The translations under genes and the position numbers were made by a program. A DNA stretch of 64,000 bases from an uncultured Porphyromonadaceae bacterium (GTDB taxonomy: Bacteria; Bacteroidota; Bacteroidia; Bacteroidales; Muribaculaceae), in contig CAMTMX010000003.1 in the NCBI GenBank assembly GCA_947073495.1, positions 9,702 to 73,701 on the forward strand. The letters run 5' to 3'. Positions 36,988 to 60,800 of this stretch are shown piece by piece. Each line of letters opens with the position of its first letter. Positions within the stretch are counted from its first letter, which is position 1. The notes under the pieces were generated by a model. It was not told the origin of the DNA. It searched no databases and worked only from the letters and a program-made list of their open reading frames with translations.

Positions 36988-36995
36988 TAATTTTG
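36988..36995 (+). promoter_or_regulatory. Bacteroides-type -7 box TAATTTTG at the head of the 24-gene operon
   Basis: TAnnTTTG match 47 nt upstream of the ATG at 37042; followed by the 9-bp-stem hairpin ttaaggtta...taaccttaa. Confidence 0.45.
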
Positions 36996-37041
36996 CATTT
37001 AAGGTTATGGACTAACCTTAAATGCGGCTCATTTAGACTTT

Positions 37042-38565
37042 ATGACAATACAAGAGATATACGACATATTATTCAACAATAAGAATCTTTCAATTTCTGA
37101 GCCAGAGATTAAAGCTGTTGAAGACTGCCATAGTTTCCTGAGGAATTTTGTGGCAGATAAAGTCATATACGGCATTAACACCGGCTTCGGTCCGATGGCA
37201 CAGTGGCGTGTCGATGACAATCATTTGAAAGAACTACAATATAATATAATACGCAGTCATGCGACGGGAGCTGGAGAGCCACTCTCTTACATAGAAGTTA
37301 AATCGGCTATGATAGCCAGAATTGGGACTTTCTTGCAAGCTCGGTCAGGCATAAATCCCAGCGTAATATTTTTATTGCAGGAATTTGTGAATAGAGGAAT
37401 ATATCCTTTTATTCCTCAGCATGGTAGTGTAGGTGCAAGCGGTGATCTTGTGCAACTTGCGCACATTGCACTATGCCTTATAGGAGAAGGCATAGTTTAT
37501 TATAACGGCGAGTGGCATCCAACGGCAGAGGTCCTTAATGAACAGGGGCTTCAGCCTATGGAAATATATATTCGAGAAGGGTTATCCGTGACAAATGGAA
37601 CCTCCGTGATGACAGGCATATCTATTGTAAATCAATATTACGCCGAAAATTTGCTTAAATACGCTACAATCGCGGGGGCATGGCTCAATGAAATAGCAGA
37701 TTCTTTTGATGATTATATGTCTGTGGCGGAGAATATTTGTCGTCGTCAACATGGGCAGCAAATAATAGCACGTTGGCTTCGTGAAGTCAGCGATGGCAGC
37801 AAGCACCTCCAGAAGAGAGAGCATGAACTTTATGACCCTAAAAAGAATAAAGATACCTATTTCGAGCACAAGGTTCAGGCATATTATTCTCTTCGTTGCC
37901 TTCCGCAGATATATGGCCCCATCTACGATACTCTAAAAAACACAGCCGAGATATTGCAGAATGAAGTAAATTCTGCATGCGATAATCCCATTGTGGATTA
38001 TACCACTAAGAATATCTATCATGGTGGTAACTTCCATGGTGATTATATCTCCCTTGAGGCAGATAAAGTCAAAATTGCAATGGTCCGTCTTGCAATGACC
38101 GCAGAGCGTCAGTTAAACTATCTGTTCCATGATAGAATCAATGGAATACTGCCTCCATTCTTGAATATGGGCGTTCTTGGACTTAATTATGGTATGCAAG
38201 CATGTCAGTTTACGGCAACATCAACTACCGCTGAATGCCAAACACTTGCCATGCCGAATTACATTCACAGTATTCCAAACAATAACGACAATCAAGATAT
38301 TGTCAGCATGGGGACAAATAGTGCTTTGCTCTGCAAAAGAGTGATTGACAACGCTTATCAGGTAATGTCAATTTTATACATCGCTCTTGCGCAAGCTACT
38401 GATTGCCTTAATCTTGCTGAAAAATTGTCTCCTAAGGCAAAAGATCAATACACCGCAATACGTGCAATATGTCCCAAATTCGTAGAAGACACTCCATTCT
38501 ATGATGAGATTGCGAAGACAGAAGACTATTTACGAACTAACATTATCCAATACTTGAACTCATGA
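37042..38565 (+). CDS. MIO-dependent aromatic amino-acid ammonia-lyase (HAL/TAL/PAL family; substrate unresolved)
   Basis: YGINTGFGPMA, MIO-forming GSVGASGDL, YSLRC, HGGNFHG, NQDIVSMG. Confidence 0.92.
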   Translation: MTIQEIYDILFNNKNLSISEPEIKAVEDCHSFLRNFVADKVIYGINTGFGPMAQWRVDDNHLKELQYNIIRSHATGAGEPLSYIEVKSAMIARIGTFLQARSGINPSVIFLLQEFVNRGIYPFIPQHGSVGASGDLVQLAHIALCLIGEGIVYYNGEWHPTAEVLNEQGLQPMEIYIREGLSVTNGTSVMTGISIVNQYYAENLLKYATIAGAWLNEIADSFDDYMSVAENICRRQHGQQIIARWLREVSDGSKHLQKREHELYDPKKNKDTYFEHKVQAYYSLRCLPQIYGPIYDTLKNTAEILQNEVNSACDNPIVDYTTKNIYHGGNFHGDYISLEADKVKIAMVRLAMTAERQLNYLFHDRINGILPPFLNMGVLGLNYGMQACQFTATSTTAECQTLAMPNYIHSIPNNNDNQDIVSMGTNSALLCKRVIDNAYQVMSILYIALAQATDCLNLAEKLSPKAKDQYTAIRAICPKFVEDTPFYDEIAKTEDYLRTNIIQYLNS

Positions 38566-39287
38566 ATTACGCTTTAGTAACAGGCGGTTCTCGCGGTCTT
38601 GGAGCTGCAATATGCAAAAGACTTGCACAGCAAGGACTTGGCATAATCATCAACTATCGGTCTAATGAATCGGCAGCTAAAGCGGTTGCAGATGAAATTA
38701 TCGGGAATGGAGGTTGTGCAAGCCTCCTACCATTTGATGTAAGCTCCGAGAAATCAGTAGATACAGCTCTCGAAAAATGGGAAGACGAACATCCCGATGA
38801 CAGGATTACAGTCCTTGTCAACAACGCTGGAATTAGAGAGGACAACCTTCTCATTTTTATGCAATCTCAACAATGGCATAACGTAATCGGCACAACTCTC
38901 GACGGCTTTTTCTACGTGACAAGGCGCGTTCTTAAAGGCATGCTGACCAAACGCTTTGGCCGTATAATCAATATAGCATCTTTATCCGGTCTTAAAGGGT
39001 TACCCGGTCAGTCAAACTATTCTGCAGCTAAGGCTGCACTTATCGGAGCGACAAAGGCACTTGCTCAAGAAGTCGCTCCGCGTAAGGTTACGGTTAACGC
39101 TGTCGCCCCCGGTTTTATTAAATCTGATATGACAAAAGATTTGGATGAATCGACATTAAAGAAACAGGTGCCACTTGGCCGATTTGGAGAACCTCAAGAA
39201 GTTGCGGCACTTGTTGCATTCCTTGCATCAAATGATTCTGCCTATATTACTGGAGAAACAATATCTATAAATGGAGGACTATACTAA
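38562..39287 (+). CDS. 3-oxoacyl-ACP reductase (SDR, FabG-like)
   Basis: TGGSRGLG cofactor motif, NNAG, catalytic Y-x3-K in YSAAKAA. Confidence 0.9.
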   Translation: MNYALVTGGSRGLGAAICKRLAQQGLGIIINYRSNESAAKAVADEIIGNGGCASLLPFDVSSEKSVDTALEKWEDEHPDDRITVLVNNAGIREDNLLIFMQSQQWHNVIGTTLDGFFYVTRRVLKGMLTKRFGRIINIASLSGLKGLPGQSNYSAAKAALIGATKALAQEVAPRKVTVNAVAPGFIKSDMTKDLDESTLKKQVPLGRFGEPQEVAALVAFLASNDSAYITGETISINGGLY

Positions 39288-40507
39288 TGGGTAGAAGAGT
39301 TGTTATCACGGGGATGGGAATATGGTCCTGTATTGGAGAAAATATCGAACAAGTAAAAGAATCACTCTATCTTGGTAAATCTGGGATAGGAGTTGATAAC
39401 ATCCGATTAGAATACGGTTATCGTTCCGGATTGACAGGGCTTGTTAATCGCCCTAAACTTAAAGGTGTTCTTGACCGTCGTCAGCGCATATCGCTTTCGG
39501 AAGAAGCTGAATATGCTTTCATGGCAGCAAAAGAGGCATTTGACAATGCCAAGATTGATGAAGAATATCTTACAAACAACGAAGTTGGAATCATTTTTGG
39601 TAATGACTCTTCCGCCAAGGCTGTAGTGGAAGCTAATGAGGTAATGAGAGAGAAGAAAGATTCTGCTCTTATCGGTTCGGGGTCTATTTTTCAGTCAATG
39701 AATTCGACTGTCAATATGAATCTTAGCACAATCTTTCATCTAAGAGGTATAAATCTTACGGTCAGTGCTGCTTGTGCAAGTGGTTCACACTCAATCGGTC
39801 TGGCATACCTTTTAATTAAACAGGGGCTTCAAGACTTGATATTGGCTGGTGGTGCTCAGGAAACAAATCATTATTCCATGTCGTCTTTTGATGCGCTCGG
39901 AACGTTCTCAACAAGAATGGATTGTCCGGAGAAAGCATCTCGTCCATTCGACAAAGATAGAGATGGTCTTATTCCCAGTGGTGGTGCAGCGGCTCTTATT
40001 CTTGAAGACTACGAACATGCTGTTGCAAGAGGAGCCAATATTCTATGTGAAGTTGTAGGTTATGGATTTTCATCAAATGGAGCCGGTATCTCTCAGCCAA
40101 GCGAAGAAGGGTCTTTTATTGCAATGCAACGCGCAATAGATGATGCCGGAATAGGACCTGATGATATAGATTATGTGAATGCACATGCAACCTCTACTCC
40201 GCAGGGAGATATGTATGAGGCGTTGGCACTTGACAGGCTCTTCAATGGAAAAAAGGCACTGATTAGTTCGACAAAATCCATGACCGGACATGAGTGCTGG
40301 ATGGCCGGTGCCAGTGAAATAGTGTATAGTCTGATAATGATGCAAAATAACTTTGTTGCACCCAATATTAATATCAACGAGCCATGTGATGCAGCAAAGA
40401 ATTTAAATCTCGCTCGGACAACTCAAGATTTGCCGATTAGCACTGTACTTTCCAATTCTTTTGGATTTGGAGGGACAAACAGTGCATTGGTAATAAGAAA
40501 ATTATAA
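39287..40507 (+). CDS. Beta-ketoacyl-ACP synthase (Cys-His-His type)
   Basis: Active-site contexts SAACASGSH, NAHATSTPQGD, MTGHECWMAG. Confidence 0.9.
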   Translation: MGRRVVITGMGIWSCIGENIEQVKESLYLGKSGIGVDNIRLEYGYRSGLTGLVNRPKLKGVLDRRQRISLSEEAEYAFMAAKEAFDNAKIDEEYLTNNEVGIIFGNDSSAKAVVEANEVMREKKDSALIGSGSIFQSMNSTVNMNLSTIFHLRGINLTVSAACASGSHSIGLAYLLIKQGLQDLILAGGAQETNHYSMSSFDALGTFSTRMDCPEKASRPFDKDRDGLIPSGGAAALILEDYEHAVARGANILCEVVGYGFSSNGAGISQPSEEGSFIAMQRAIDDAGIGPDDIDYVNAHATSTPQGDMYEALALDRLFNGKKALISSTKSMTGHECWMAGASEIVYSLIMMQNNFVAPNININEPCDAAKNLNLARTTQDLPISTVLSNSFGFGGTNSALVIRKL

Positions 40508-40516
40508 AATAATCAA

Positions 40517-41044
40517 ATGAAATATAAATTCTCACTTTTGGCTATGCTGGCTGTTTTCTCCCTACCAGTATTCGCCGGGACCAAAATGGTATTTGGTACC
40601 ATTGATCAACTGAAAGGAGAAAAGAATATTCCAGTGACTTTAAACTGGGAAGAGGCAGTATATGCTAAAGTCGGAGATCTTGAAGACTTTCTCCTTAAGG
40701 CTGAAAGAAGTGACAATTGGGAAAGCCAGTCTCTTGCTTATTTTCTAAGAAAGGTTAACGACAAAGTTGGTGAATATGGCATCCGCGTAGTTTCTGCTGA
40801 TAAGGGAGATAACTCCAATTTCAGAATTGAGATTGTTCCTCAAACAATCTCGAAAGGTAGTGACATTACAGGAGAAATACTACTTCTACCGGCTGAAGGC
40901 AATGAACCAATAGCGTCTATATCATTCTCGTCAGACGAAAGGGATGATAACGATAAGATAGCTTTCAGGGATCAATTACAGAGTATCGGAGAAAGTTTCG
41001 GAAAGCTGCTAAAGAAACAGATAAAGCAAGCGAATAAGAAATAA
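40517..41044 (+). CDS. Hypothetical exported protein
   Basis: Signal peptide MKYKFSLLAMLAVFSLPVFAG; no recognisable motif; embedded in the operon. Confidence 0.55.
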   Translation: MKYKFSLLAMLAVFSLPVFAGTKMVFGTIDQLKGEKNIPVTLNWEEAVYAKVGDLEDFLLKAERSDNWESQSLAYFLRKVNDKVGEYGIRVVSADKGDNSNFRIEIVPQTISKGSDITGEILLLPAEGNEPIASISFSSDERDDNDKIAFRDQLQSIGESFGKLLKKQIKQANKK

Positions 41045-41064
41045 GCCGCATTAAAAATCTACAG

Positions 41065-42162
41065 ATGAATCTGTTTCCAGACTTAAAAAAGAAATATACA
41101 AAGGAAAGTCTTTCTGCAAGAGAGGCTCAACGCCTTGCTGAGTTCATTGCGTTTGGTCCGGTTATTTTCCAGACAGCTCGAATAATGTCTAAGTGGGGAA
41201 TCCTTGAAATGCTTCGAAACCGCAATGGAGGCATGACCATAGAAGAAATAGCAAAGGAAACTGCTATTTCTACATATGCAGCTAAATGCTTGCTAGAAGC
41301 AAGTCTCTGTATCGGCATAGTTCTTATTGACGACAAGACAAATCGGTTTACATTATCAAAAACAGGATGGTTCCTGATTAACGATCCTGCTACAAAGGTA
41401 AATATTGACTTTAATCATGATGTTAACTACCTTGGATGGTTCAACCTTGAAGAATCATTACGAAAGGGTAAACCTGAAGGATTAAAGACTCTGGGTGATT
41501 GGCCAACAGTCTATGAAGGCTTATCATCTTTGCCTAAGCATATTCAAGACAGCTGGTTCGGCTTTGACCATTTTTATTCTGACAATTCGTTTGATCAAGC
41601 TTTGGAAATTGTATTCGGATATAAACCGAGAACCTTGTTAGACGTAGGTGGCAACACCGGTCGTTGGGCATTAAGGTGTGTCGAATACAATAAAAATGTT
41701 AGTGTAACAATACTTGATTTGCCTCAGCAGATTTGCATGATGAAAGAAAACATCAAAGACAAAAAAGGGGCTGAACGTATTGATGGACTTGGAGTTGATT
41801 TACTTGATGAAGCTGCTCCAATGCCCACTGACAGGAAGTTCGATGTGATATGGATGAGCCAGTTTCTTGATTGCTTCAGCGAAGAACAGATTGTAAGCAT
41901 TTTGAAACGTGCGACCAAGGTTATGAACGAAGAATCTCGGCTCTTCATTATGGAGACTTTTTGGGATAGACAGCGTTTTGAACCAGCCGCTTTATGTCTG
42001 ACTTTAACAAGTCTCTATTTTACTGCAATAGCAAATGGGAATAGTAAAATGTACCATTCTGAAGACATGGAACGGCTTATAAATGAAGCTGGAATTGTCA
42101 TTGAAACCACTCATGACCACCTTGGTCATGGGCATAGTATCATAGTTTGTAAATTAAAATAA
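41065..42162 (+). CDS. Class I SAM-dependent methyltransferase (O-methyltransferase-like, with N-terminal wHTH dimerisation domain)
   Basis: Motif I LLDVGGNTGRW; acidic loop ILDLP; length and architecture of family-2 O-methyltransferases. Confidence 0.8.
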   Translation: MNLFPDLKKKYTKESLSAREAQRLAEFIAFGPVIFQTARIMSKWGILEMLRNRNGGMTIEEIAKETAISTYAAKCLLEASLCIGIVLIDDKTNRFTLSKTGWFLINDPATKVNIDFNHDVNYLGWFNLEESLRKGKPEGLKTLGDWPTVYEGLSSLPKHIQDSWFGFDHFYSDNSFDQALEIVFGYKPRTLLDVGGNTGRWALRCVEYNKNVSVTILDLPQQICMMKENIKDKKGAERIDGLGVDLLDEAAPMPTDRKFDVIWMSQFLDCFSEEQIVSILKRATKVMNEESRLFIMETFWDRQRFEPAALCLTLTSLYFTAIANGNSKMYHSEDMERLINEAGIVIETTHDHLGHGHSIIVCKLK

Positions 42163-42178
42163 CTTAATTATCACAGAA

Positions 42179-42427
42179 ATGGAACGTAACGAAATAGAAG
42201 AAAAAGTACATGATTTCCTCATCGAGGATTTAGAGGTAGATGAAGATCGCATCTACCCTGAGGCACGTCTTAAAGATGATGTCGGCATTGACAGCCTCGA
42301 CTTCGTTGACATAGTTGTCATCGTAGAGAAAACCTTCGGATTTAAAATCAAACCCGAGGAGATGGCTGGAGTAATAACCCTTAATGACTTCTATAATTAC
42401 ATAGAAAACAAAGTCAATAGCATTTAA
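42179..42427 (+). CDS. Acyl carrier protein
   Basis: 82 aa, acidic, phosphopantetheine site GIDSLDFVD. Confidence 0.88.
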   Translation: MERNEIEEKVHDFLIEDLEVDEDRIYPEARLKDDVGIDSLDFVDIVVIVEKTFGFKIKPEEMAGVITLNDFYNYIENKVNSI

Positions 42428-42438
42428 TACGCCAAGTT

Positions 42439-43344
42439 GTGAGCGAGTTGAAACACGATAAGTGGGTTGGAACTACCTACGGGAACAACTGGATGCATCG
42501 GTGGCTCATCAAAATGTTGAGAGTCATCGATGTTAGGCTAATATATGCTTTTGCATCTGTTTTTGTTGTGCCTCCTACTATGATCATTAACTCGTTGGCA
42601 CGCAATGCAATGTATAAGTTCTATCGTAAGGCTTTTGGTTATGGTAAAATGAAGTCTTTATGGATGACTTATAGAAATCATTGTGAATTCGCCCAGGTAG
42701 TAATAGATCGCTTCGCTATGTATGCCGGAAAGAAATTTTCTTTTGACATAGATGGATATGATATTTTCGATTCATTATCAAAGCAGTCTTCTGGATTTAT
42801 TCAGTTAAGTTCACACATTGGCAATTATGAGATAGCCGGGTATTCACTTGTGGCAAGAGACAAAAGATTCAATGCTATGGTTTTCGGCGGTGAGAAAGAG
42901 AGTGTTATGAAGAATCGAAGTAAAATGTTTGATTCTAATAACATTCGGATGATTGCTATGCAAACAGACATGTCTCATCTCTTTATTGTAGATGAAGCAT
43001 TGACTAATGGAGAGATAATCAGTATGCCTGCCGATAGAGTGTTTGGTTCTCAAAAGTCTTTTGAGATAAGTTTCTTCGGAAGGAAAGCAAAATTCCCTCA
43101 AGGACCGTTTGTTCTTGCGGCTTTAAGAAATGCACCTATGCTATTTGCTTCTGTCATGAAGACGGGATTACTGCGATATAAGATAACCGTCAGAAAGATT
43201 GAAACAGATTTAGAAGGCAATTCTCGAGTAAGAGCTAAGAGCTACGCTTCGCGCTATGTCTCTTTCCTTGAAGAAACAGTGAAAAGGTATCCAACACAGT
43301 GGTATAACTATTTCGATTTCTGGATTTCAGATGGAACTGAGTAA
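42439..43344 (+). CDS. LpxL/HtrB-type lysophospholipid (late lipid A-like) acyltransferase
   Basis: SSHIGNYE matches the H-x-G-N-W/Y-E catalytic motif of LpxL-type acyltransferases. The annotated start is GTG, so it is uncertain. Confidence 0.7.
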   Translation: MSELKHDKWVGTTYGNNWMHRWLIKMLRVIDVRLIYAFASVFVVPPTMIINSLARNAMYKFYRKAFGYGKMKSLWMTYRNHCEFAQVVIDRFAMYAGKKFSFDIDGYDIFDSLSKQSSGFIQLSSHIGNYEIAGYSLVARDKRFNAMVFGGEKESVMKNRSKMFDSNNIRMIAMQTDMSHLFIVDEALTNGEIISMPADRVFGSQKSFEISFFGRKAKFPQGPFVLAALRNAPMLFASVMKTGLLRYKITVRKIETDLEGNSRVRAKSYASRYVSFLEETVKRYPTQWYNYFDFWISDGTE

Positions 43345-43768
43345 TATTGATATTCATGGATTACTGCCACAACAGGAACCATTTATAATGGTCGGGAAAC
43401 TTGTGTCATTTGACATGGGGAAAACTGTCACGCAGACTCTTATAACAGAAAAGAATATATTTGTTGAAGACGGCGTATTTGCTGCCCCAGGTCTTATTGA
43501 AAACATTGCTCAGACCTGTGCAACACGCATTGGTTATATCAATAAATATATTATTAAGAAAGAAATTCAGCTCGGATTCATCGGTGCCATAAGAAATCTC
43601 AAATTGCATCGCTGTCCCAAAGTTGGGGAATTAATTGAGACCACAATCATTACTGAAGAGGAAGTTTTTGGTATGACACTCGTTTCGGCAACGATTATGG
43701 TTGCGGATGAATTAATTGCAGAGTCTTCAATGAAGATTGCTGTCAGAGATGCCGGATCGAATAAATAG
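43331..43768 (+). CDS. Hotdog-fold dehydratase (FabZ/ApeI-like)
   Basis: LLPQQEPFIMVGKL resembles the FabZ LLPHRYPFLLVD N-terminal motif; 145 aa. Confidence 0.65.
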   Translation: MELSNIDIHGLLPQQEPFIMVGKLVSFDMGKTVTQTLITEKNIFVEDGVFAAPGLIENIAQTCATRIGYINKYIIKKEIQLGFIGAIRNLKLHRCPKVGELIETTIITEEEVFGMTLVSATIMVADELIAESSMKIAVRDAGSNK

Positions 43769-43770
43769 GA

Positions 43771-44196
43771 ATGTTTATGAACACTTTGTCAGCATCTGCA
43801 CAATTTGAAATTCGGTTTAGTGAAGTCGATTCTATGAACATCGTTTGGCATGGCTCATATCCTCTTTATTTTGAAGATGCAAGAGAAGCATTTGGCAAAA
43901 AATACGGGCTTGGATACATGACTATTTTTTCTAATGGTTATTATGCGCCATTAGTTGAAATGTCATTTAAGTATAAAAAGCCCCTCGTATATGAATCGAA
44001 GCCCACAATTATAATAACATATATTCCGACTGAATCTGCTAAGATCGTTTTTGAATATCAGATTATTGACGAGACTGACGGCTCTGTTTATGCAACTGGA
44101 CGGACAGTACAGGTTTTTACCGACAGAAATAACGAACTGGTTTGGGATAATCCTCCTTTTTATAAAGACTGGAAAGAGCAATGGAAGGTGTTATGA
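43771..44196 (+). CDS. 4HBT/YbgC-type hotdog thioesterase
   Basis: RFSEVDSMNIVWHGSYPLYFEDAREAF is typical of 4HBT thioesterases. Confidence 0.8.
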   Translation: MFMNTLSASAQFEIRFSEVDSMNIVWHGSYPLYFEDAREAFGKKYGLGYMTIFSNGYYAPLVEMSFKYKKPLVYESKPTIIITYIPTESAKIVFEYQIIDETDGSVYATGRTVQVFTDRNNELVWDNPPFYKDWKEQWKVL

Positions 44197-45869: not shown

Positions 45870-46127
45870 ATGGAAAACTTAATTTTACAACTGAAAAATC
45901 AGATCATCGAAGTTCTCAACCTTGAGGACATGACGGCAGAGGACATTGACGCAGAGGCTCCCCTCTTTGGTGATGGACTTGGACTGGACTCAATCGACGC
46001 ACTTGAACTTATCGTTCTTTTAGAACGTGAGTATGGCATCAAACTGTCAAATCCTGCTGAGGGAAAGCAAATTTTCAAGTCTATCTCCTCGATTGCATAT
46101 TTCGTTAGCAAAAATCGCAAGAAATAA
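45870..46127 (+). CDS. Acyl carrier protein
   Basis: 85 aa; GLGLDSIDALEL phosphopantetheine site. Confidence 0.88.
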   Translation: MENLILQLKNQIIEVLNLEDMTAEDIDAEAPLFGDGLGLDSIDALELIVLLEREYGIKLSNPAEGKQIFKSISSIAYFVSKNRKK

Positions 46128-46128
46128 A

Positions 46129-52120: not shown

Positions 52121-53631
52121 ATGGAAGTTGTATCATTATAGGTGGCGGAATAGGAGGTCTCTTTACTGGCGCTTTTCTATCGAAGAATGGTGTCAAGGTG
52201 ACTGTACTTGAAAAGAACTCCATTATAGGAGGAGGATTACAATGTTTCACTCGGAAGGGGAAAACATTTGAAACCGGAATGCATGTAGCTGGAGGGTTCG
52301 GACCTAATGGTAGTCTGAATAAAATTTGTCGTTATCTCGGAATCTCACACAAACTTAAACTGCAAGAAGTCCCATCGGAATGTAGCGATGAAATTTACTA
52401 TCGCTCCTCTAATGAGTTGTTTAAAATAGCTTCTGGAAGACAACAGTTTACTGAACGTCTAATTCAGTATTTCCCGCATGAAGCTAAAGGCATTACGGCT
52501 TATGTAGATGAATTATTCAGACTGACAGAGGAGGTTCCTCTTTTTTCATTACATGAGGATAGTCCATTGTTAGAAAATAAGCATTCTGACAACTTTCTTA
52601 TTTCAGCAGACAGTTTGATTGACAAATTTGTGCAAGATAAGAAACTCAGGGAAATCCTTGCTTATCTAAATCCCCTTTATGGCGGTGTCAAGGGACATAC
52701 GCCCGCATATATCCATGCCATCTTGAATGTTTTATACATAAATGGAGCTACTCGATTTATTGGCGGAGGACAACAACTTGCAAATGCTCTGTGTGAGATT
52801 ATAACAGACAATGGTGGCGTTGTTAAATCAAATTCACCTGTAGTAAAGATAGAGATTGAAGATAAAGCTGTCCAATATGTTCAGATAGAAACAGGAGAGA
52901 AATATATTGCTGATAATTATGTATCGGCAATTCATCCTTTGGCAATGGTAAACATTGCTTCCAATGGAGCTTTTAGAAAAAGCTTTGTTCATCGTTTAAA
53001 CGTAATACCAAATTCCACATCGGCGTTTTCAGTATATATTGACTTGAAACCAAATTCATTCGAGTATATTGATCATACATGCTATTATATGGAAAACTTT
53101 GGATTAATGTGGGAACAAGAAAGGCAAGCTAATCAGAGTATTCCAAACTCTTTTATGTATATGACTCCTCCTGATGAGAATCAAGGTCAATATGCTAACA
53201 GATTACTAATTCATTGCCTAATGAGCTTTGAAATGGTAAAGAAATGGGAGAATACTGCTTCTGGCAAAAGAGGCACATCTTATGAAGAGTGGAAATTTTT
53301 AATGGCAAATTATTTAATTGATAAATTATCAACCTTGTATCCACATCTCAGAGATTGCATATCTGATGTTTATTCATCTTCTCCATTGACAATAAGGGAT
53401 TTTTACAATACCAAGAATGGAGCGATATTTGGATTCCGTAAAGACTGTGAGAATTTACTTATATCTCGATTGCCGGTATATACGAAAATCAGCAACTTAT
53501 TTTTGACTGGTCAAAACGTGATATTACATGGCATATGCGGTGTTCCACTTACTGCAATCAACACCTCTGAGGCTATTCTTGGTAAGAACGCAATAATTAA
53601 TGCAATACAAAGACAAAATGAGAACTGTTAG
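52117..53631 (+). CDS. FAD-dependent oxidoreductase, phytoene-desaturase (CrtI)-like
   Basis: N-terminal dinucleotide fold IIGGGIGGL...VLEKNSIIGG; about 500 aa. Confidence 0.8.
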   Translation: MNGSCIIIGGGIGGLFTGAFLSKNGVKVTVLEKNSIIGGGLQCFTRKGKTFETGMHVAGGFGPNGSLNKICRYLGISHKLKLQEVPSECSDEIYYRSSNELFKIASGRQQFTERLIQYFPHEAKGITAYVDELFRLTEEVPLFSLHEDSPLLENKHSDNFLISADSLIDKFVQDKKLREILAYLNPLYGGVKGHTPAYIHAILNVLYINGATRFIGGGQQLANALCEIITDNGGVVKSNSPVVKIEIEDKAVQYVQIETGEKYIADNYVSAIHPLAMVNIASNGAFRKSFVHRLNVIPNSTSAFSVYIDLKPNSFEYIDHTCYYMENFGLMWEQERQANQSIPNSFMYMTPPDENQGQYANRLLIHCLMSFEMVKKWENTASGKRGTSYEEWKFLMANYLIDKLSTLYPHLRDCISDVYSSSPLTIRDFYNTKNGAIFGFRKDCENLLISRLPVYTKISNLFLTGQNVILHGICGVPLTAINTSEAILGKNAIINAIQRQNENC

Positions 53632-54514
53632 ATACTGGCTTATTCTATTTGCATTTATTTTTGTGTCAACCTTTGCTTTTGCGCAAGGTTTGCCAATTAA
53701 TATCTGGGAGGGAACAGACTGTAAGACAAATGTAAAACTAACGCCATATCTTGCAGAAGGTACGGATAACACCGCTGTCATTGTATGCCCGGGAGGCAGC
53801 TATTTCTGGTTGGATAAGAAAACAGAAGGCAAAGGAGTGGCTGAGTGGTTGCAATCAAATGGTATTTCTGCATTTGTTTTGGAATATCGAGTAGGAGGAG
53901 TTCCTGCGTTTATAACCCATTATAGATTATTCTCAAGAGGTAATCGCTTTCCCGATATGTTACAAGATGTTCAGCGGAGCATTCAGATTGTGCGAGAAAA
54001 TGCCCGTAATTACGGTATAAATGCTAATGAGGTAGGAGTAATGGGATTCTCTGCTGGTGGTCATCTTGCTATAATGTCTGGGATATTCTTTGATAGCGAT
54101 GTTTTATCATCTGTAGGAATTGAGCCTCATGTATCATTGAAACCGGATTATATCGTTCCTATATATCCGGTTGTTTCAATGACCGATTGGTCAACTCATA
54201 AAAGGTCGCGACGTGGATTGCTTGGAGAAGGTTCTTCAATAAGCAATGAGATGAAAGATTCTCTTTCTCTTGAAAAGCATGTACGTCTGGATATGCCACC
54301 GACTTTTCTGATGAATTGCGTTGATGATCCTATTGTCAAATACCAAAACTCAGAGCTCCTTGATTCAGCAATGAATGCGTGCGGAGCACCTCATAAATAT
54401 ATTCAGTATAAGACTGGTGGACATGGATTTGGTGCTAATCCAAAGAAAACTACTTCAGAGGCGATAGCTTGGAAAAACGAGTTTCTCAAATGGCTTAAAG
54501 GAATTTTGAAATGA
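53618..54514 (+). CDS. Secreted alpha/beta-hydrolase (esterase/lipase)
   Basis: Signal peptide; oxyanion CPGGSY; nucleophile elbow GFSAGGH; C-terminal GGHGF. Confidence 0.78.
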   Translation: MRTVRYWLILFAFIFVSTFAFAQGLPINIWEGTDCKTNVKLTPYLAEGTDNTAVIVCPGGSYFWLDKKTEGKGVAEWLQSNGISAFVLEYRVGGVPAFITHYRLFSRGNRFPDMLQDVQRSIQIVRENARNYGINANEVGVMGFSAGGHLAIMSGIFFDSDVLSSVGIEPHVSLKPDYIVPIYPVVSMTDWSTHKRSRRGLLGEGSSISNEMKDSLSLEKHVRLDMPPTFLMNCVDDPIVKYQNSELLDSAMNACGAPHKYIQYKTGGHGFGANPKKTTSEAIAWKNEFLKWLKGILK

Positions 54515-55812
54515 CCGAAAAGATCAGTGACATAGAGTTTGAATCTGTTGAGACAATCAACAAGTTCCAGAACAGAAAACTTCAAGAGGCTCTCCGTTAT
54601 CTTGAAGCAAATTCTGCTTTTTATCAAAGAATGTTCAAAGACAATGGAATTGATATTGAACAAATACAGACTATTGATGATCTGGTAAAATTGCCTTTTA
54701 CAGAGAAGAAAGACTTACAGCTACATAATCAGGAGTTTCTATGTGTCCCGTCAGAAAAAATTGTTGATTATGTAACAACTTCGGGAACACTTGGAGACCC
54801 GGTTACATTTGGTTGTACCGACAACGATTTAGAGCGATTGGCCTACAACGAGATGAAGTCGTTTAGTTGTGCTGGTATTAAGCCGGGTAATATAATCCAA
54901 CTGATGACGACGCTTGACAAGCGTTTTATGGCAGGATTAGCCTATTTCTTGGGTATTAGAAAACTTGGTGCAAGTATTATCCGAGTTGGTAACGGTATGC
55001 CGGAACTGCAGTGGGATACTATTAACCGTCTTAAGCCGGATACCATTATGTGTGTCCCGTCCTTTATCCTAAGGCTAATCGAATATGCCGAAAAGAACGG
55101 CATTGATTATCGGAGTTCCAGCATAAAACGTATCATAGGAATTGGAGAAGGGCTACGAGATCAGGATTTCAATTTGAATCTCCTCGGAAAAAGAATAAAG
55201 GGAAAGTGGGATGTATCTCTCTTTGCCACCTACTCTTCAACAGAGATGGGAGCAACATTTTCGGAATGCCCTTATGGTTGTGGTGGGCATGTCCATCCGG
55301 AACTTATAATCGTTGAAATAATAGGCGACAATAACCTTCCGGTCAAAGATGGAGAAGTTGGAGAAGTAGTTGTAACAACGCTTGGAGTAGAGGGTATGCC
55401 GTTATTGCGATTCCGTACCGGAGATATGAGTAGCAAGATTACAACTCGCTGTGCTTGCGGCAGAAACTCCTATCGTTTGACTCCTCTGGTAGGTCGTAAG
55501 AACAATATGATTAAACTTAAAGGCACGACTATTTACCCTCCGGCAATCAATGATGTGCTTGACAATACCCCTTATGTTGTCAATTATGTTGTGATAGTCC
55601 AGAATAGTTATGCGGGTACTGACGAAGTAGTTGTTAAAGTTGGTGTAGCCTCCGGACAAACATTCGATATTATCAAGGATTTAAAAGATAGATTTAGGTC
55701 AAGAATTAGAGTCGCGCCTATAGTAGAAGTCTTATCACCGGAAGATGTCGCTAAAATAAATAATCCGATGAACAACCGCAAGCCAATTAAGTTCATTGAT
55801 CGTAGAAACTAA
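54511..55812 (+). CDS. Adenylate-forming enzyme, phenylacetate-CoA ligase (PaaK)/F390-synthetase-like
   Basis: TSGTLGDP adenylation P-loop, YSSTE, RFRTGD. Confidence 0.82.
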   Translation: MTEKISDIEFESVETINKFQNRKLQEALRYLEANSAFYQRMFKDNGIDIEQIQTIDDLVKLPFTEKKDLQLHNQEFLCVPSEKIVDYVTTSGTLGDPVTFGCTDNDLERLAYNEMKSFSCAGIKPGNIIQLMTTLDKRFMAGLAYFLGIRKLGASIIRVGNGMPELQWDTINRLKPDTIMCVPSFILRLIEYAEKNGIDYRSSSIKRIIGIGEGLRDQDFNLNLLGKRIKGKWDVSLFATYSSTEMGATFSECPYGCGGHVHPELIIVEIIGDNNLPVKDGEVGEVVVTTLGVEGMPLLRFRTGDMSSKITTRCACGRNSYRLTPLVGRKNNMIKLKGTTIYPPAINDVLDNTPYVVNYVVIVQNSYAGTDEVVVKVGVASGQTFDIIKDLKDRFRSRIRVAPIVEVLSPEDVAKINNPMNNRKPIKFIDRRN

Positions 55813-55848
55813 TTATGATTAGGCAATCTATCTAATTCTGAAAGAATA

Positions 55849-58800
55849 ATGAGCAAAACGATACTTTTCATATACTATTACTTCAAGAGGCAGTCGTGGG
55901 CAGCATGGACACTATTTACAGTGTTGACGTGTACTCTTGTGCTATCAGTTATCTCACTGCATTATAAAGAGGATATTTCCGATTTCCTGCCGTTGGATGA
56001 TGATAATCAAACTGCATTGGCAGTATATCAGGATATATCTGGAGCGAATAAAATATATGCAATCATTGGAGTCAAAGACACAACATCTGTAGAACCTCAA
56101 AAGCTTGTTGATGGAGTAGAGATGTTTGTAAGTAATCTGGAAGATATGGATTCTCTCCATTATATAAAGAATATTGTCAAAGAAATTGACATGGAGAAAA
56201 TACTCGGTATCGCAGATGAGGTTTATGATAATATTCCGTACTTTCTTACTGATAACGATTACGCTCGAATTGATTCGTTGCTTTCTGAGCCGGATTATAT
56301 AGATAACCAGATAGACGAAGATAAGCAGCTTTTGCTTTTTCCGACTTCTAATCTTATGGTCACAAATATTGCCCGTGATCCGTTAAACCTGTTTTCACCA
56401 ATAATCAACCGTTTATCTGGTGGAGAATCTCCGATTGCATATGAATCATACGATGGTTATATATTATCGCCTGATTCTAATAGAGCTATTGTGATTTTAG
56501 AATCTTCATTTGGAGCTCATGAGTCAGAGCATAATGCTAAAATTGCCCAGATGCTCCAAGAGGCATCAGAAGAGACTGAGAAAAATGACTCTGATCTTGA
56601 TATTCACATCATTGGAGGCCCGGTCATTGCCGTGTCAAATGCAAATCAAATTAAATCTGATAGCATCCTCGCTGTATGTATTGCCGGAGTGTTAATATTG
56701 GCACTTCTGATATATGTGTTTCGCAATTTCCGCAATATATTGTTGATTGTTGTATCCGTCGGCTGGGGATGGATTTTTGCCATGGGGGTTATAGGATTGT
56801 TTTATAGCTCTGTCTCCATCATTGTAATAGGTATAGCTTCCGTGATTTTAGGAATCGCGGTTAATTATCCATTACATTTAATTGACCATTTAAAAGACAG
56901 CGAGAATCCCCGTGCAGCTATAAAAGAGATTATAGGTCCGCTTGTCGTAGGAAATGTTACGACAGTCGGTGCGTTTCTATGTTTAGTTCCCTTGAATGCT
57001 CCTGCCCTTCACGATTTAGGATTATTTGCTTCATTACTTTTAATAGGAACTATTGCTTTTGTATTGTTGTTCCTCCCGCAGATTGTAAAGACAAGAAAGC
57101 CAGGAGAAAAACATATTTCGGATCCTATACTTATAACCCGTTTGGCGAATGTTTCTTTGGAAAATAACAAATGGTTAGTTGTTGCAATATTAATTCTTAC
57201 TCTGATATTTGGCTATTTCAGTTTTAAAACTGAATTCGATTCCGATATGCGAAATATCAATTTTATGACTCCCGAACAACGTACTGATTTGTCCTACTTC
57301 CAAGGATTGATTTCAAAATCAAATGGAACTGAGAATGTTTATGTAGTTAGTAATGGTAAAAACTGGGATGAGGCATTAATCCAAAATGAGGTAATAACTC
57401 ATAGCATTGATTCTCTTGTTGAAAACGGTTTAGCTACAAAGCATAATAACGTATCAGATTTTCTTTGTTCTGATGTTCAGCAAAAAATTAGGTTAAACAA
57501 ATGGAATAAATTTATAAGCCGATATAATGCTGAATTAAATAATCGATTATCTGACGCTGCTAAGTCTAATGGGTTTAACGCCAAGGCGTTTGCTCCGTTC
57601 TTCGATATAATCAATAGAAAATATGAAGTTGCCGATTTTGAGCGATTTGATGGTCTGATTTCAACGGCATTCTCCGGTAACATCAGCACTGACGAATCAA
57701 ATAACAGAAAGTCTATTGTTCAGACACTTGAAGTTAAACATGAAGATATTGATTATATTAAAAATCATCTTAATAATAATGGAGAGTTCAGTGGTCTGAT
57801 ATTCGATGTTAAGAGTATGAATGGTTCAATAGCCAACACTTTGTCTGATGACTTCAATTACATCGGGATTGTGTGTGGTTTCATAGTATTTGTATTCCTT
57901 TGGATAGCTCTTGGAAGTATAGAACTGGCTATTGTTTCTTTTCTGCCAATGGCAATCAGTTGGATATGGATTCTCGGGATTATGGGGTTATTAGGTATTA
58001 AATTCAACATTGTGAATGTAATACTTGCAACCTTTATCTTTGGTCAAGGTGATGATTACACCATATTCATGACAGAAGGCCTATCTTATGAACTGGCTTA
58101 TAGGAAACGGCTTCTCGCTTCATATAAGAACAGTATAATCGTATCTGCCTTAATTATGTTCATCGGTATCGGTACACTTATTTTTGCCAAGCATCCTGCA
58201 CTACGGAGTTTGGGAGAAGTTACAATTGTGGGAATGTTATCAGTAGTTTTGATGGCATATTTATTCCCTCCTTTAGTTTTCAACTGGCTTGTCCGTAAAA
58301 ACGGAAAGTTGAGAAAACGACCCATAACCCTAAAGAAAATATTGTGTACCGGTTTCTGTGCAGGAGTATTCCTAACCCAATTATTTACGGGTTATATTTT
58401 GGGTTTCTTTATGCTTATCCTCACAAAACCCACAGATAAGAAACGTCTGTTATTACATAGATACTGTTGCTCTGTATTTAGATGGGACGTTAAACGTATG
58501 CCAGGATTAAAATTTAGATTTGAGAATTATTTCAATGAAAAATTCCATAAACCTGCTGTTATAATCAGCAATCATCAATCTTTGCTGGATTCATTCTATT
58601 TGATGACATTAACTCCAAAAATGGTTATGATTGCGAATGATCATGTTGGAACCAATTTTATTACAGGTAGAATGTTCCGCTGGTTGGGCTTTATTACAGT
58701 TGGAATGGGCATTGAAAAAATGGTTGAGCGAGTTCGTCCTTACGTTAATCAAGGGTATAGTATAGCTATTTTCCCAGAAGGAGAGCGCCCGCGGAATGTG

Positions 58801-59481
58801 AGCAATTTTGTAAAGAGATTTCACAAAGGAATGATTCAGTTTGCCGATGATTTACAATTGGATATCGTGCCTATTTATCTGCATGGAATCGTCCAATCTA
58901 TGCCTAAAGGATCTGCATTGTCAAATGGTGGCGAAGTTGTTGTGGAGATCGGTCACCGTATTGCGCTTGAAAAAATTAAATCTATGGGAGAAACTCATAA
59001 GGAGCAAGCACAATCAATACGCCATTTATATCAAACTCATTTTACTCAATTATGTCAGAACCAATCAACTATATTGCTTCTAAAGGATGCTGTCTATGAT
59101 AGGTACCGATATAAAGGAGCTGAAATAGAGCGGAATGCAAAAAAAACTTTGAAATCATTTATGGCTTATGCCGACAAAATTGAAGGGAAGTATGATGGCA
59201 ATGATTTCATGGTAATAGATGAAGTTGGGCAAGGGGAGCTGGCTCTTCTATTATCTCTTATGTACCCTGAAAGGCAAATATTGCTATATCTTAATAATAA
59301 TGAAAACACAGAAATAGTAGAAGGATGCCTTCAAGGATATGTTTCTAATGTTCGATTCATTACCGCTGATTCGATATCGTCTCGATATATTGATGGAATG
59401 CACCAATATATTGTCACCCAAGAAAATTCATCCTCTATGAACAGTATAGGTCCCAATACAGTTTTTATTTATATTAAGTAA
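55849..59481 (+). CDS. Tripartite fusion: MMPL/RND-type transporter + PlsC-type acyltransferase + Rossmann (methyltransferase-like) domain
   Basis: About 12 TM helices with two large loops in the first 800 aa or so; NHQSLLD and FPEGERP; C-terminal VIDEVGQGELAL glycine-rich motif. Confidence 0.8.
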   Translation: MSKTILFIYYYFKRQSWAAWTLFTVLTCTLVLSVISLHYKEDISDFLPLDDDNQTALAVYQDISGANKIYAIIGVKDTTSVEPQKLVDGVEMFVSNLEDMDSLHYIKNIVKEIDMEKILGIADEVYDNIPYFLTDNDYARIDSLLSEPDYIDNQIDEDKQLLLFPTSNLMVTNIARDPLNLFSPIINRLSGGESPIAYESYDGYILSPDSNRAIVILESSFGAHESEHNAKIAQMLQEASEETEKNDSDLDIHIIGGPVIAVSNANQIKSDSILAVCIAGVLILALLIYVFRNFRNILLIVVSVGWGWIFAMGVIGLFYSSVSIIVIGIASVILGIAVNYPLHLIDHLKDSENPRAAIKEIIGPLVVGNVTTVGAFLCLVPLNAPALHDLGLFASLLLIGTIAFVLLFLPQIVKTRKPGEKHISDPILITRLANVSLENNKWLVVAILILTLIFGYFSFKTEFDSDMRNINFMTPEQRTDLSYFQGLISKSNGTENVYVVSNGKNWDEALIQNEVITHSIDSLVENGLATKHNNVSDFLCSDVQQKIRLNKWNKFISRYNAELNNRLSDAAKSNGFNAKAFAPFFDIINRKYEVADFERFDGLISTAFSGNISTDESNNRKSIVQTLEVKHEDIDYIKNHLNNNGEFSGLIFDVKSMNGSIANTLSDDFNYIGIVCGFIVFVFLWIALGSIELAIVSFLPMAISWIWILGIMGLLGIKFNIVNVILATFIFGQGDDYTIFMTEGLSYELAYRKRLLASYKNSIIVSALIMFIGIGTLIFAKHPALRSLGEVTIVGMLSVVLMAYLFPPLVFNWLVRKNGKLRKRPITLKKILCTGFCAGVFLTQLFTGYILGFFMLILTKPTDKKRLLLHRYCCSVFRWDVKRMPGLKFRFENYFNEKFHKPAVIISNHQSLLDSFYLMTLTPKMVMIANDHVGTNFITGRMFRWLGFITVGMGIEKMVERVRPYVNQGYSIAIFPEGERPRNVSNFVKRFHKGMIQFADDLQLDIVPIYLHGIVQSMPKGSALSNGGEVVVEIGHRIALEKIKSMGETHKEQAQSIRHLYQTHFTQLCQNQSTILLLKDAVYDRYRYKGAEIERNAKKTLKSFMAYADKIEGKYDGNDFMVIDEVGQGELALLLSLMYPERQILLYLNNNENTEIVEGCLQGYVSNVRFITADSISSRYIDGMHQYIVTQENSSSMNSIGPNTVFIYIK

Positions 59482-59495
59482 TACATTACCTAATA

Positions 59496-60800
59496 ATGAA
59501 GCCTATAAGTATCGTCATCCCCATGTTGCTTGTAATTAGCAATTATGCTTATTCTCAGGTCAATCAAACCTCGCCTGTAATACATTCCGATAATTCGGTT
59601 TCATTCTCTTTTGTCGCGCCTGATGCAAAAGAGGTTATCCTAAAAGGATCTTTTCTCCAGCGCAAAAGCTATATCAAAACAGAATCGGGAGCAGTGACAA
59701 AAGATGGATCAGTAAAAATGACTCGTGAAGGTAATCGTTGGATCTATACAACTGCACCTTTGCCATCAGAGTTCTATACCTATACTTTTGAGATAGATGG
59801 CAAACCTCGGATTGATAGAAATAATAAGAATGTGATTCGGGATATCGCAGATTCATTGAACTATTTCGTAATTAGAAATGGCATAGCAGACAATTATGTT
59901 GTTAACGATGTACCTCATGGTACCGTGAAAAAGGTGTGGTATCCTTCAACACTTGATGGCATGGACAAACGTAGAATGACTGTATATCTCCCAACTGCAT
60001 ATACTGCAAATAAGAATAAACGATTCCCGGTTCTATACCTTCTGCATGGTTCTGGCGGTGATGAAAACTCATGGAGTGATGGAGGTCGTGCGATTCAAAT
60101 TCTTGACAATATGATAGCCCGTGGGGAATGTGAACCAATGATTGTTGTTATGCCAAATGGCAATGTAAACCTTGCAGCTGCCCCCGGAGAAGACCCTAAT
60201 AATCCAGATGTTAATCCATCTGCCAACAATACTGATTCTATGTTGGGCAAAATAGAATCAGTATTTATGGATGAAGTCGTTAACTTTGTTGACAATAATT
60301 TTAGGACACTTAATGACAAATCTCATAGAGCGATTGCCGGCCTCTCTCTCGGTGGTTTACATACTCTTTTTATTTCGCTTAATAATCCGCTGAGTTTTGA
60401 TTATGTAGGACTTTTTTCAGCTCAAACTACTAATGCCCTAAGTGAAGGGAGAATCAGTGGAATGCAGAAAATTGGTGATAAATGGAAACAATTGAAAGAA
60501 AACATTCCATTTATTGGCGGTGGCAGTGTTGACAGAACCATCTCAAAATATACCTCTGATGACTTGTCAATTTATGATAATATTGATCTTAAATTGAAAT
60601 ATCAATTTAAGATACCGCCAAAATTATATTATATCGCCGTCGGAAGAGATGATTTTGTTAAAAAGCTCAATGATGACTTCAGAAAGAAACTCAACGCGAA
60701 AGGCTATCAATTCTACTATAATGAGACTGATGGTGCCCATACATGGGATAATTGGAGAAAGGATTTAGTTGACTTCTTACCAAGGATTTTTAAAGACTAA
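59496..60800 (+). CDS. Secreted esterase (Ig-like N-terminal domain + esterase-D/putative-esterase fold)
   Basis: Signal peptide; LYLLHGSGGDENSW; nucleophile elbow GLSLGG; C-terminal GAHTW. Confidence 0.78.
   Translation: MKPISIVIPMLLVISNYAYSQVNQTSPVIHSDNSVSFSFVAPDAKEVILKGSFLQRKSYIKTESGAVTKDGSVKMTREGNRWIYTTAPLPSEFYTYTFEIDGKPRIDRNNKNVIRDIADSLNYFVIRNGIADNYVVNDVPHGTVKKVWYPSTLDGMDKRRMTVYLPTAYTANKNKRFPVLYLLHGSGGDENSWSDGGRAIQILDNMIARGECEPMIVVMPNGNVNLAAAPGEDPNNPDVNPSANNTDSMLGKIESVFMDEVVNFVDNNFRTLNDKSHRAIAGLSLGGLHTLFISLNNPLSFDYVGLFSAQTTNALSEGRISGMQKIGDKWKQLKENIPFIGGGSVDRTISKYTSDDLSIYDNIDLKLKYQFKIPPKLYYIAVGRDDFVKKLNDDFRKKLNAKGYQFYYNETDGAHTWDNWRKDLVDFLPRIFKD

Follow-up and report, generated by a model that had tools for sequence, protein, structure and literature searches.

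A conserved Bacteroidales form of the flexirubin-type aryl-polyene gene cluster in an uncultured Muribaculaceae bacterium

The DNA analysed here, termed the window, is a 64,000-nt stretch of contig CAMTMX010000003.1 from an uncultured Porphyromonadaceae bacterium (assembly GCA_947073495.1; Muribaculaceae in GTDB). Its list of open reading frames (ORFs) contains 24 tightly packed ORFs on the + strand spanning 37042-60800, which judging by sequence are a flexirubin-type (flx) aryl-polyene gene cluster. We consider it likely that these genes encode the form which the flexirubin-type aryl-polyene lipid pathway takes in Bacteroidales (Muribaculaceae), laid out as one 24-gene unit, and that the product is probably not a classical flexirubin ester. 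The cluster is a conserved Bacteroidales form of a known flexirubin/aryl-polyene pathway, not a new kind of system. An initial annotation, made from the letters alone, had found all 24 co-directional genes and recognised the aryl-polyene/flexirubin logic, and had announced non-canonical additions; the genes and the logic are borne out by the flexirubin and aryl-polyene (ape) matches below, and the list of additions is much shorter.

Five proteins exceed the cut-offs of curated NCBIfam flexirubin equivalog models. These are the tyrosine ammonia-lyase (TAL) FlxA (model NF053541, FlxA_rubin_TAL, 812.8 bits with a cut-off of 700; HutH reaches 387, under its cut-off of 539), FlxB, FlxJ, LolA2 and FlxY (Table 1). 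The characterised reference is the cluster of Chitinophaga pinensis DSM 2588, which starts with flxA, ends with flxY and has a counterpart in Flavobacterium johnsoniae (PMC3992019). Its order is TAL, short-chain dehydrogenase/reductase, ketosynthase (KS), acyl carrier protein (ACP), LpxL-type acyltransferase (AT), dehydratase (DH), hypothetical, thioesterase, KS, methyltransferase, halogenase, condensing-like, ACP, KS, condensing-like, carbohydrate esterase family 4 (CE4) deacetylase, LolA, hypothetical, DH, family 2 glycosyltransferase (GT2), acyltransferase/exporter, retinol-reductase-like FAD enzyme, C45 peptidase, phosphopantetheinyl transferase (PPTase) and CoA ligase (PMC3992019 Table S4). 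The window cluster is colinear with it, with minor rearrangements (flxJ earlier, FlxU after FlxY), and is also colinear with the complete flx clusters of Persicobacter plasmid pPP6 and Aureispira plasmid pAUEa.

TBLASTN against the plasmid clusters established the orthologues of FlxF, L, S, T, U and V. DH1 is 36% identical to Persicobacter FlxF, FlxL is 36-37% identical to the FlxL-slot proteins of Aureispira and Persicobacter, the GT2 part of the fusion protein shares 44% identity with Persicobacter FlxT and 28% with the N-terminus of ApeJ, and FlxV is 30% identical to its Persicobacter namesake (E = 1e-83). FlxU aligns with Persicobacter FlxU at 27% identity over 1198 aa (E = 3e-138; 20% with ApeM), and FlxY is 45-52% identical to FlxY of the plasmid-borne clusters. 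Since the window is colinear with the C. pinensis and plasmid clusters, three enzymes first listed as non-canonical are in fact canonical: the MIO ammonia-lyase is FlxA, the PaaK-like adenylating enzyme is FlxY (692.3 bits, cut-off 520), and the CrtI-like oxidoreductase is orthologous to FlxV. The GT2-acyltransferase fusion has a precedent in ApeJ. Truly non-canonical are only the two esterases and two small proteins, one of the DMT type and one secreted.

Several differences from the flx references remain. The window has no FlxK halogenase, no counterpart of the hypothetical protein FlxG and no FlxX PPTase. The slot of FlxP (CE4 deacetylase) holds an ArnE/F-like DMT protein, and that of FlxW (C45 peptidase) holds the secreted BD-FAE esterase Est1. 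The window GT2 bears an extra acyltransferase module, a ferulic-acid-esterase homologue (Est2) is added at the end, and a hypervariable secreted protein stands between KS1 and FlxJ. TBLASTN with FlxW and FlxP (two sequences each) and PPTase gave 0 matches in the window and in 68 related Bacteroidales loci; as a control, six Flx proteins of the same reference clusters match 46-53 of these loci. The cluster recurs, gene for gene, in over 40 species representatives of the Bacteroidales, and its differences from the reference flx clusters are conserved across them.

All cluster proteins were also compared by BLASTP with the Ape proteins of Escherichia coli CFT073. The ape core has been defined as the ketosynthases ApeO and ApeR, the chain-length factor (CLF) ApeC, the carrier proteins ApeE and ApeF, the dehydratases ApeI and ApeP, the ketoreductase ApeQ and the transporter ApeM (Grammbitter et al. 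2020, 10.1101/2020.12.19.423268). Every one of these core genes of E. coli CFT073 and Xenorhabdus doucetiae is represented in the window, ApeM at 20% identity and the others at 23-55%, with ApeP recognised by Pfam (DH1). One-to-one counterparts were found for E. coli ApeR, Q, O, C, E, F, I, K, B, L, J, D and M. Nothing in the ape cluster corresponds to the second KS:partner pair, FlxV, the esterases, the slot protein or the EamA protein.

The three ketosynthases first seen as Cys-His-His motifs in the translations are confirmed by Pfam and NCBIfam, which also agree on the two ACPs, the ketoreductase, the two hotdog dehydratases and the 4HBT thioesterase. All three ketosynthases miss the NCBIfam cut-off for FabF (493.75), KS1 with 336.9 bits, KS3 with 295.6 and KS2 with 143.2, and KS1 likewise scores 389.8 bits against a FabB cut-off of 630. 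KS1, ApeR-like over its full length, is the probable priming enzyme. Both non-catalytic partners proposed earlier also stand. For FlxO, in addition to Ketoacyl-synt_2, the PDB search returned 6qsp_B, the ApeC chain of the solved ApeO:ApeC complex (26% identity to ApeC), and 7f28_A. The half-size FlxL (45326) escapes sequence profiles: it has no Pfam or PDB sequence match, and its profile-profile comparison with KS, CLF and DH families was non-significant (hhalign 6%). Its AlphaFold2 (AF2) model (pLDDT 86) matches exclusively KS/CLF structures in Foldseek, ApeC among them, which together with the FlxL orthology supports a KS-like partner.

Initiation differs from that of the ape system, in which ApeH loads 4-hydroxybenzoate. 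FlxY has no BLASTP match to ApeH, nor does any other window protein match E. coli CFT073 ApeH at E <= 0.01, so initiation appears to be of the flexirubin type: tyrosine would be converted to 4-coumarate and then to its CoA ester by FlxA and the 4-coumarate ligase FlxY, on an ape-like core with a lipid-assembly and export set. FlxY of C. pinensis has been characterised biochemically and prefers 4-coumarate (PMC3992019). FlxJ had been annotated as an O-methyltransferase. A methyltransferase it is, although more likely one that acts on ring carbon, because it is 47% identical to E. coli ApeB (E = 9e-120) and deletion of apeB yields desmethyl aryl rings (10.1101/2020.12.19.423268).

Domain searches confirmed the whole lipid-assembly and export set of the initial annotation, namely the LpxL-type acyltransferase, the GT2-PlsC fusion, the LolA-like carrier, the small DMT protein and the MMPL fusion. 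The LpxL-type enzyme is a separate gene in the window and GT2-fused in ApeJ; the PlsC-type enzyme is GT2-fused in the window and separate in ape clusters, as ApeD. The acyltransferase part of the GT2 fusion shares 39% identity with the AT domain in Persicobacter FlxU and 23% with ApeD, and the fusion also matches polyprenyl-phosphate-sugar synthase-like NCBIfam models (AglJ, PpgS, ArnC). Acyltransferase domains are reshuffled among lineages (window 42439-43344, 50144-52120 and 55849-59481; related locus L066:31212-32888). Both the GT2 fusion and FlxU terminate in a methyltransferase-like region, and the GT2-fused AT module is paralogous to the FlxU AT. The Aureispira FlxU orthologue carries a trifunctional annotation; the last 399 aa of FlxU, used as a metagenome query to see what follows the exporter, returned no relatives. 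The small DMT protein matches NCBIfam ArnF (1.8e-14) and ArnE (1.9e-12), both under cut-off, and has a median identity of 82% across 34 loci.

Table 1. Genes and signals of the cluster in window coordinates
Feature	Coordinates	Strand	Basis
Intrinsic terminator	36635..36664	+	12-bp stem then T-run; -18.2 kcal/mol, z = -4.2; left boundary
Candidate Bacteroidetes -7 promoter box TAATTTTG	36988..36995	+	47 nt ahead of FlxA ATG; read directly
Leader hairpin, 12-bp	36996..37024	+	-12 kcal/mol, z = -3.0; between promoter box and FlxA start codon
FlxA, tyrosine ammonia-lyase (MIO enzyme, to 4-coumarate)	37042..38565	+	NCBIfam FlxA_rubin_TAL; Pfam Lyase_aromatic
FlxB, ketoreductase (ApeQ-like)	38562..39287	+	NCBIfam FlxB_rubin_SDR 389.8 bits, cut-off 340; 42% identity to E. 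coli ApeQ
KS1 = FlxC, ApeR-like ketosynthase, Cys-His-His	39287..40507	+	Pfam KS N- and C-terminal domains; ApeR 35% full-length
unk1, fast-evolving small secreted protein, 'slot family'	40517..41044	+	Signal peptide; slot-ORF profile match E = 4e-13
FlxJ, S-adenosylmethionine (SAM) methyltransferase (ApeB-like)	41065..42162	+	NCBIfam FlxJ_fam_MTase 599.2 bits, cut-off 560
ACP1 = FlxD (ApeF-like)	42179..42427	+	Pfam PP-binding; 40% identity to ApeF
FlxE, LpxL-type acyltransferase	42439..43344	+	Pfam Lip_A_acyltrans; 25% identity to ApeJ C-terminal half, residues 318-549
DH1 = FlxF, ApeP-like hotdog dehydratase	43331..43768	+	Precomputed Pfam ApeP-like; weak FabZ matches
FlxH, 4HBT thioesterase (ApeK-like)	43771..44196	+	Pfam 4HBT_2; 34% identity to ApeK
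KS2 = FlxI, ApeO-like ketosynthase, Cys-His-His	44181..45329	+	Pfam; 32% identity to ApeO; PDB 6qsp_A at 3e-31
FlxL (unk2), half-size non-catalytic KS-fold partner of KS2, 175 aa	45326..45853	+	AF2 model; FlxL orthology
ACP2 = FlxM (ApeE-like)	45870..46127	+	Pfam PP-binding; 55% identity to ApeE
KS3 = FlxN, ApeO-like elongating ketosynthase, Cys-His-His	46129..47346	+	Pfam; 32% identity to ApeO
KSl = FlxO, chain-length-factor-like partner, 331 aa, no active-site Cys	47339..48334	+	Pfam Ketoacyl-synt_2; ApeC-like
Small DMT/EamA protein, four transmembrane segments, 117 aa, ArnE/ArnF-like	48339..48692	+	Pfam EamA; FlxP slot of reference clusters
LolA2 = FlxQ, LolA-like periplasmic carrier (ApeL-like)	48694..49341	+	NCBIfam LolA2_flexi 213.3 bits, cut-off 125; ApeL 23%
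LolB2 = FlxR, probable	49313..49792	+	LolB2_flexi 31.4 bits, under cut-off 60; signal peptide; flxR position
DH2 = FlxS, ApeI-like hotdog dehydratase	49776..50147	+	Precomputed Pfam ApeI-like; ApeI 29%; PDB 6qsr_A at 0.023
GT2 (FlxT/ApeJ-N-like) + PlsC acyltransferase + C-terminal methyltransferase-like region	50144..52120	+	Pfam Glycos_transf_2 + Acyltransferase
FlxV, CrtI/retinol-reductase-like FAD oxidoreductase	52117..53631	+	Pfam Amino_oxidase, NAD_binding_8
Est1, secreted BD-FAE/acetyl-xylan-esterase-like serine hydrolase	53600..54514	+	Pfam BD-FAE; signal peptide; GFSAG motif; FlxW slot
FlxY, 4-coumarate-CoA ligase type	54511..55812	+	NCBIfam NF053551 (FlxY_rubin) 692.3 bits, cut-off 520
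FlxU, MMPL/RND exporter + PlsC acyltransferase + methyltransferase-like tail (ApeM-like)	55849..59481	+	Pfam MMPL + Acyltransferase
Est2, secreted CBM48-CE1 ferulic-acid-esterase homologue, terminal gene	59496..60800	+	Pfam Esterase; signal peptide
Downstream hairpin	60824..60880	.	-23.5 kcal/mol, z = -2.3, moderate; between convergent Est2 and cobalamin adenosyltransferase genes; right boundary

The identities, orthology and synteny of these genes are observed; the chemical steps, the anchor and the localisation that follow are all drawn by analogy, chiefly with the published structure of aryl-polyene lipids and the functions proposed for ApeD, ApeJ, ApeM, ApeL and ApeN (10.1101/2020.12.19.423268). 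FlxA would deaminate tyrosine to 4-coumarate, which FlxY would activate. KS1 would prime, and the KS2:FlxL and KS3:FlxO pairs would extend the chain on the ApeE/ApeF-like ACPs, and in each round FlxB and the two dehydratases of the ApeP and ApeI types would act; because no enoyl reduction would take place, a conjugated polyene is expected. FlxJ would methylate the aryl ring, like ApeB. The LpxL-type acyltransferase, the GT2-AT fusion and the AT domain of the exporter may then link the polyene, perhaps along with a second acyl chain, to an anchor of the sugar-phosphate glycerolipid type, comparable to the Xenorhabdus aryl-polyene lipids, which are of the GalNAc-phosphate-glycerol type (10.1101/2020.12.19.423268). 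Finally, the MMPL exporter would work with the small transporter resembling ArnE/F and with the LolA2/LolB2-like carriers to deliver the product to the outer membrane. On this analogy the likely product is an outer-membrane lipid that carries a methylated 4-hydroxyphenyl polyene.

A classical flexirubin is an ester of an aryl-polyene acid with a dialkylresorcinol, and could be made by this cluster if darA and darB lay elsewhere in the chromosome and, for example, Est1 replaced FlxW as a transacylase. Five flexirubin equivalogs score above cut-off, and Est1 occupies the FlxW slot exactly. In C. pinensis darAB sits at a locus apart from flx (PMC3992019), and no Dar genes lie within about 20 kb of the Persicobacter and Aureispira plasmid clusters either; because darAB is unlinked in C. 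pinensis, the missing linkage here is not itself a sign of novelty. The initial annotation had reported no DarA/DarB-type genes, and in the same way a DarB-type ketoacyl-ACP synthase III (KAS III) gene was found neither in the window nor in the 68 related loci, with a weak query (E. coli FabH) that has no true positive control. This query gave weak thiolase-fold matches on KS2 only, and the other window genes are unrelated. Searching the literature, we found no data on the distribution of DarA/DarB in Bacteroidales and no report of flexirubin pigments in Muribaculaceae. FlxW is in none of the Bacteroidales loci, and the signal peptide of Est1 conflicts with cytoplasmic assembly of the polyene. 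Since the C45 enzyme is missing and no DarA/DarB genes are nearby, the product probably lacks a dialkylresorcinol and is not the classical ester, which we hold to be an unlikely outcome for this cluster.

The two secreted esterases of the initial annotation were recovered with domains and signal peptides, and raise the question of where the starter acid comes from. Est1 matches the NCBIfam models PaeX and AxeA1 (1.7e-42) and PDB 6a6o (2e-32), its ORF overlaps both neighbouring ORFs, and it is kept in 31 close loci (median 70% identity) and four distant ones. Est2 matches the ferulic acid esterases 8bbp/6rzn (E = 8e-75) and 7b5v, a carbohydrate esterase family 1 (CE1) enzyme with CBM48 (1e-45), and has the nucleophile motif GLSLG at residue 282; by this similarity and Ser motif it is a predicted CE1 ferulic acid esterase. 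Its orthologues (62-71% identity) directly follow FlxU in three of the four other species sampled, beyond which the genes differ, and their identity parallels the divergence of the exporter FlxU. As Est2 belongs to the Pfam family of the Ag85-type mycolyltransferases, we also considered it as such a partner of the MMPL exporter, an idea rejected as the main reading, since the one mycolyltransferase-like match (PS1) is at 2.5e-4, against 8e-75 for the ferulic acid esterases, its closest solved relatives.

It is conceivable, though doubtful, that Est2 and perhaps Est1 free 4-coumarate or ferulate from dietary arabinoxylan and that FlxY activates the salvaged acid as polyene starter, in which case the breakdown of fibre would be tied to the synthesis of a pigment lipid. 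Such salvage would suit the close homology of Est2 to characterised esterases of gut Bacteroidetes and its co-inheritance with the cluster, the placement of Est1 in the BD-FAE/acetyl-xylan esterase group and its translational coupling to FlxY, and the preference of C. pinensis FlxY for 4-coumarate. Yet FlxA is kept in every locus with a visible left end and provides an internal source of 4-coumarate, a hydroxycinnamate importer is not evident in the cluster, and a glycoside hydrolase takes the position of Est2 in one relative. The esterases could equally target the polyene-sugar ester itself, a vinylogous hydroxycinnamoyl ester. A broader proposal, which we put forward only tentatively, is that in gut Bacteroidales the flexirubin pathway was rewired to make an aryl-polyene glycolipid free of dialkylresorcinol, with secreted enzymes of the feruloyl/acetyl-esterase type as integral parts. 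These could bring diet-derived hydroxycinnamates from plant arabinoxylan to FlxY as polyene starters, or could serve as a periplasmic hydrolase or transacylase on the polyene-sugar ester, maturing the product or moving it to an outer-membrane acceptor. If the esterases are integral, this would be the first functional link of carbohydrate-esterase families with aryl-polyene lipid biogenesis, and would establish that Muribaculaceae have an abundant envelope lipid so far uncharacterised.

That the KS, ACP, ketoreductase and DH genes are housekeeping machinery for type II fatty-acid or lipid A synthesis is very improbable: FabF/FabB are the best solved-structure matches of the ketosynthases and FlxB resembles FabG, but all three ketosynthases fall far under the FabF/FabB equivalog cut-offs, FlxB exceeds its own specific cut-off, CLF-like partners and ApeI/ApeP-type dehydratases are present and an enoyl reductase is absent from the set, and linkage to the TAL, ligase and exporter genes is invariable in more than 40 species.

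Some observations weigh against the flexirubin-type aryl-polyene lipid pathway without a dialkylresorcinol, encoded as one unit, that we prefer. In the PDB search the ketosynthases score equally well against FabF structures and ApeO. DarA and DarB may be encoded outside the 64 kb and the neighbourhoods of about 20 kb that the search covered, C. pinensis being an example of such separation. The role of FlxW (C45) in joining polyene to dialkylresorcinol is itself a proposal (PMC3992019), which makes its absence weak evidence. The argument for transcription as one operon comes from gene spacing, with 15 promoter-like TAnnTTTG motifs inside the cluster. No chemistry was found for any Bacteroidales cluster in the searchable literature, where, as the initial annotation had supposed, no characterised product from gut Bacteroidales was found.

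Between KS1 and FlxJ, relatives carry 0-4 tandem copies of signal-peptide or lipobox proteins of about 175-195 aa (L016:495-3077, L009:1840-3603, L019:1517-3600, L052:1484-3490 and L068:2801-5733), some of which resemble outer-membrane-protein beta-barrels. This slot family, to which unk1 belongs, changes much more quickly than the biosynthetic genes around it: 23 homologues were detected for unk1 and 2571 for FlxL. The AF2 model of unk1 (pLDDT 84) has a weak PelC/DUF330/PqiC/LptE-like fold (best E = 1.5e-3, TM about 0.4-0.5); these matches are marginal and no function was assigned from them.

Proteins identical to those of the window are confined to metagenome contigs and metagenome-assembled genomes (MAGs). 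For the KS-like protein the closest species representatives are uncultured Muribaculaceae (77%) and the cultured Muribaculum caecicola (73%), whose version of one cluster protein occurs in hundreds of assemblies. Some relatives have a second FlxV-like FAD oxidoreductase right before FlxV (L022:14770-16266, M. caecicola; L064:4805-6298; L065:3670-5163) or an extra PlsC acyltransferase ahead of the exporter (L014:18524-19663, L065:8862-10004), and distant loci have B12-binding radical SAM enzymes (L036:18087-19361, L046:14907-16193); these extra tailoring genes suggest product diversification within the family. Several public MAG records with this Muribaculaceae-type cluster (L009, L013, L016, L021, L024, L029 and P0231) bear the names Staphylococcus, Alistipes, Odoribacter, Porphyromonadaceae, Prevotellaceae or Clostridiales, which probably reflect outdated or wrong labelling and not true horizontal spread.

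Muribaculaceae rank among the dominant bacteria of the mouse gut and are also common in further mammals; to our knowledge, almost nothing has been reported on their specialised envelope lipids. An aryl-polyene lipid in strict anaerobes living beside host tissue could influence colonisation and responses to inflammation. The corrected gene map separates the standard flx/ape machinery from the conserved parts specific to Bacteroidales, which are the esterases Est1 and Est2, a transporter resembling ArnE/F, the hypervariable slot protein, and the lack of FlxW, FlxP and (nearby) Dar; M. caecicola (NM86_A22, NZ_SSTG01) is a cultured carrier of the cluster, and the MAGs GCA_023663365.1 and GCA_029051245.1 carry it too. 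Flexirubin-type clusters are known from the literature to occur across Bacteroidetes classes, and in other bacteria aryl-polyene lipids protect against reactive oxygen species (10.1101/2020.12.19.423268). Genome mining has found arylpolyene biosynthetic gene clusters (BGCs) in single-cell genomes of the Muribaculaceae genus CAG-486 (PMC9007364), and in Bacteroides xylanisolvens the flexirubin-like arylpolyene cluster pBGC-12, syntenic with the C. pinensis flexirubin cluster (PMC12940132). These share class and host group with the window cluster, and are automated class calls with neither gene-by-gene dissection nor a product.

Regarding layout, ORFs overlap at 12 of the 23 gene junctions and the widest gap is 36 nt. 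The initial annotation had counted 11 overlaps, one fewer through the 1-nt overlap at 39287, and was right about the packing. An independent gene caller predicted the same genes on same-species metagenome contigs. The 24 genes are probably transcribed as one unit, as initially proposed: the spacing fits, and the terminator scan found no convincing intergenic terminators within the cluster. Because flanking genes vary among species on both sides, FlxA and Est2 are taken as the cluster limits.

The terminator, promoter box and downstream hairpin said to bracket the run are all present. The terminator belongs to the unrelated upstream esterase gene and marks the left cluster edge. The box TAATTTTG is a plausible promoter element judged by its letters and position; taken alone it is weak evidence, because TAnnTTTG is frequent in the window (77 observed, 57 +/- 7 expected), and its + strand occurrences within the cluster leave room for internal promoters. 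A sigma-70 promoter scan stayed at background level, this model being uninformative for Bacteroidetes. The arms of the leader hairpin, CAUUUAAGGUUA...UAACCUUAAAUG, pair perfectly over 12 bp (36996-37024), and the hairpin could act as an operator or RNA element; Rfam found no RNA families in the window, the leader hairpin included. The downstream hairpin was not picked up by the terminator scan.

Upstream, 33454-36611 holds an RtcB RNA ligase (minus strand), a divergent WYL/WCX-domain regulator and a secreted esterase of the CE1/polyhydroxybutyrate-depolymerase type with its own terminator, a trio kept in same-species contigs and not found beside the cluster in other species. This esterase (35766-36611) was considered as a cluster member and rejected, since the terminator separates it from the cluster and it is not upstream of FlxA in other species. 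Downstream, 60882-63861 (minus strand) carries convergent cobalamin genes unrelated to the cluster (PduO-type adenosyltransferase, CobB/CbiA, CbiD). GC content is 38.5% in the cluster, lowest in its second half (about 35-37%), and 42.3% in the rest of the window; GC skew is positive in the cluster and negative in the upstream 36 kb, which fits the strand switch of the genes. At 11326-14080 a tyrosine integrase (Arm-DNA-bind_5/Phage_int_SAM_5) and a truncated ORF of the PD-(D/E)XK transposase family lie in DNA of low GC (0.377), probably a mobile-element remnant unrelated to the cluster.

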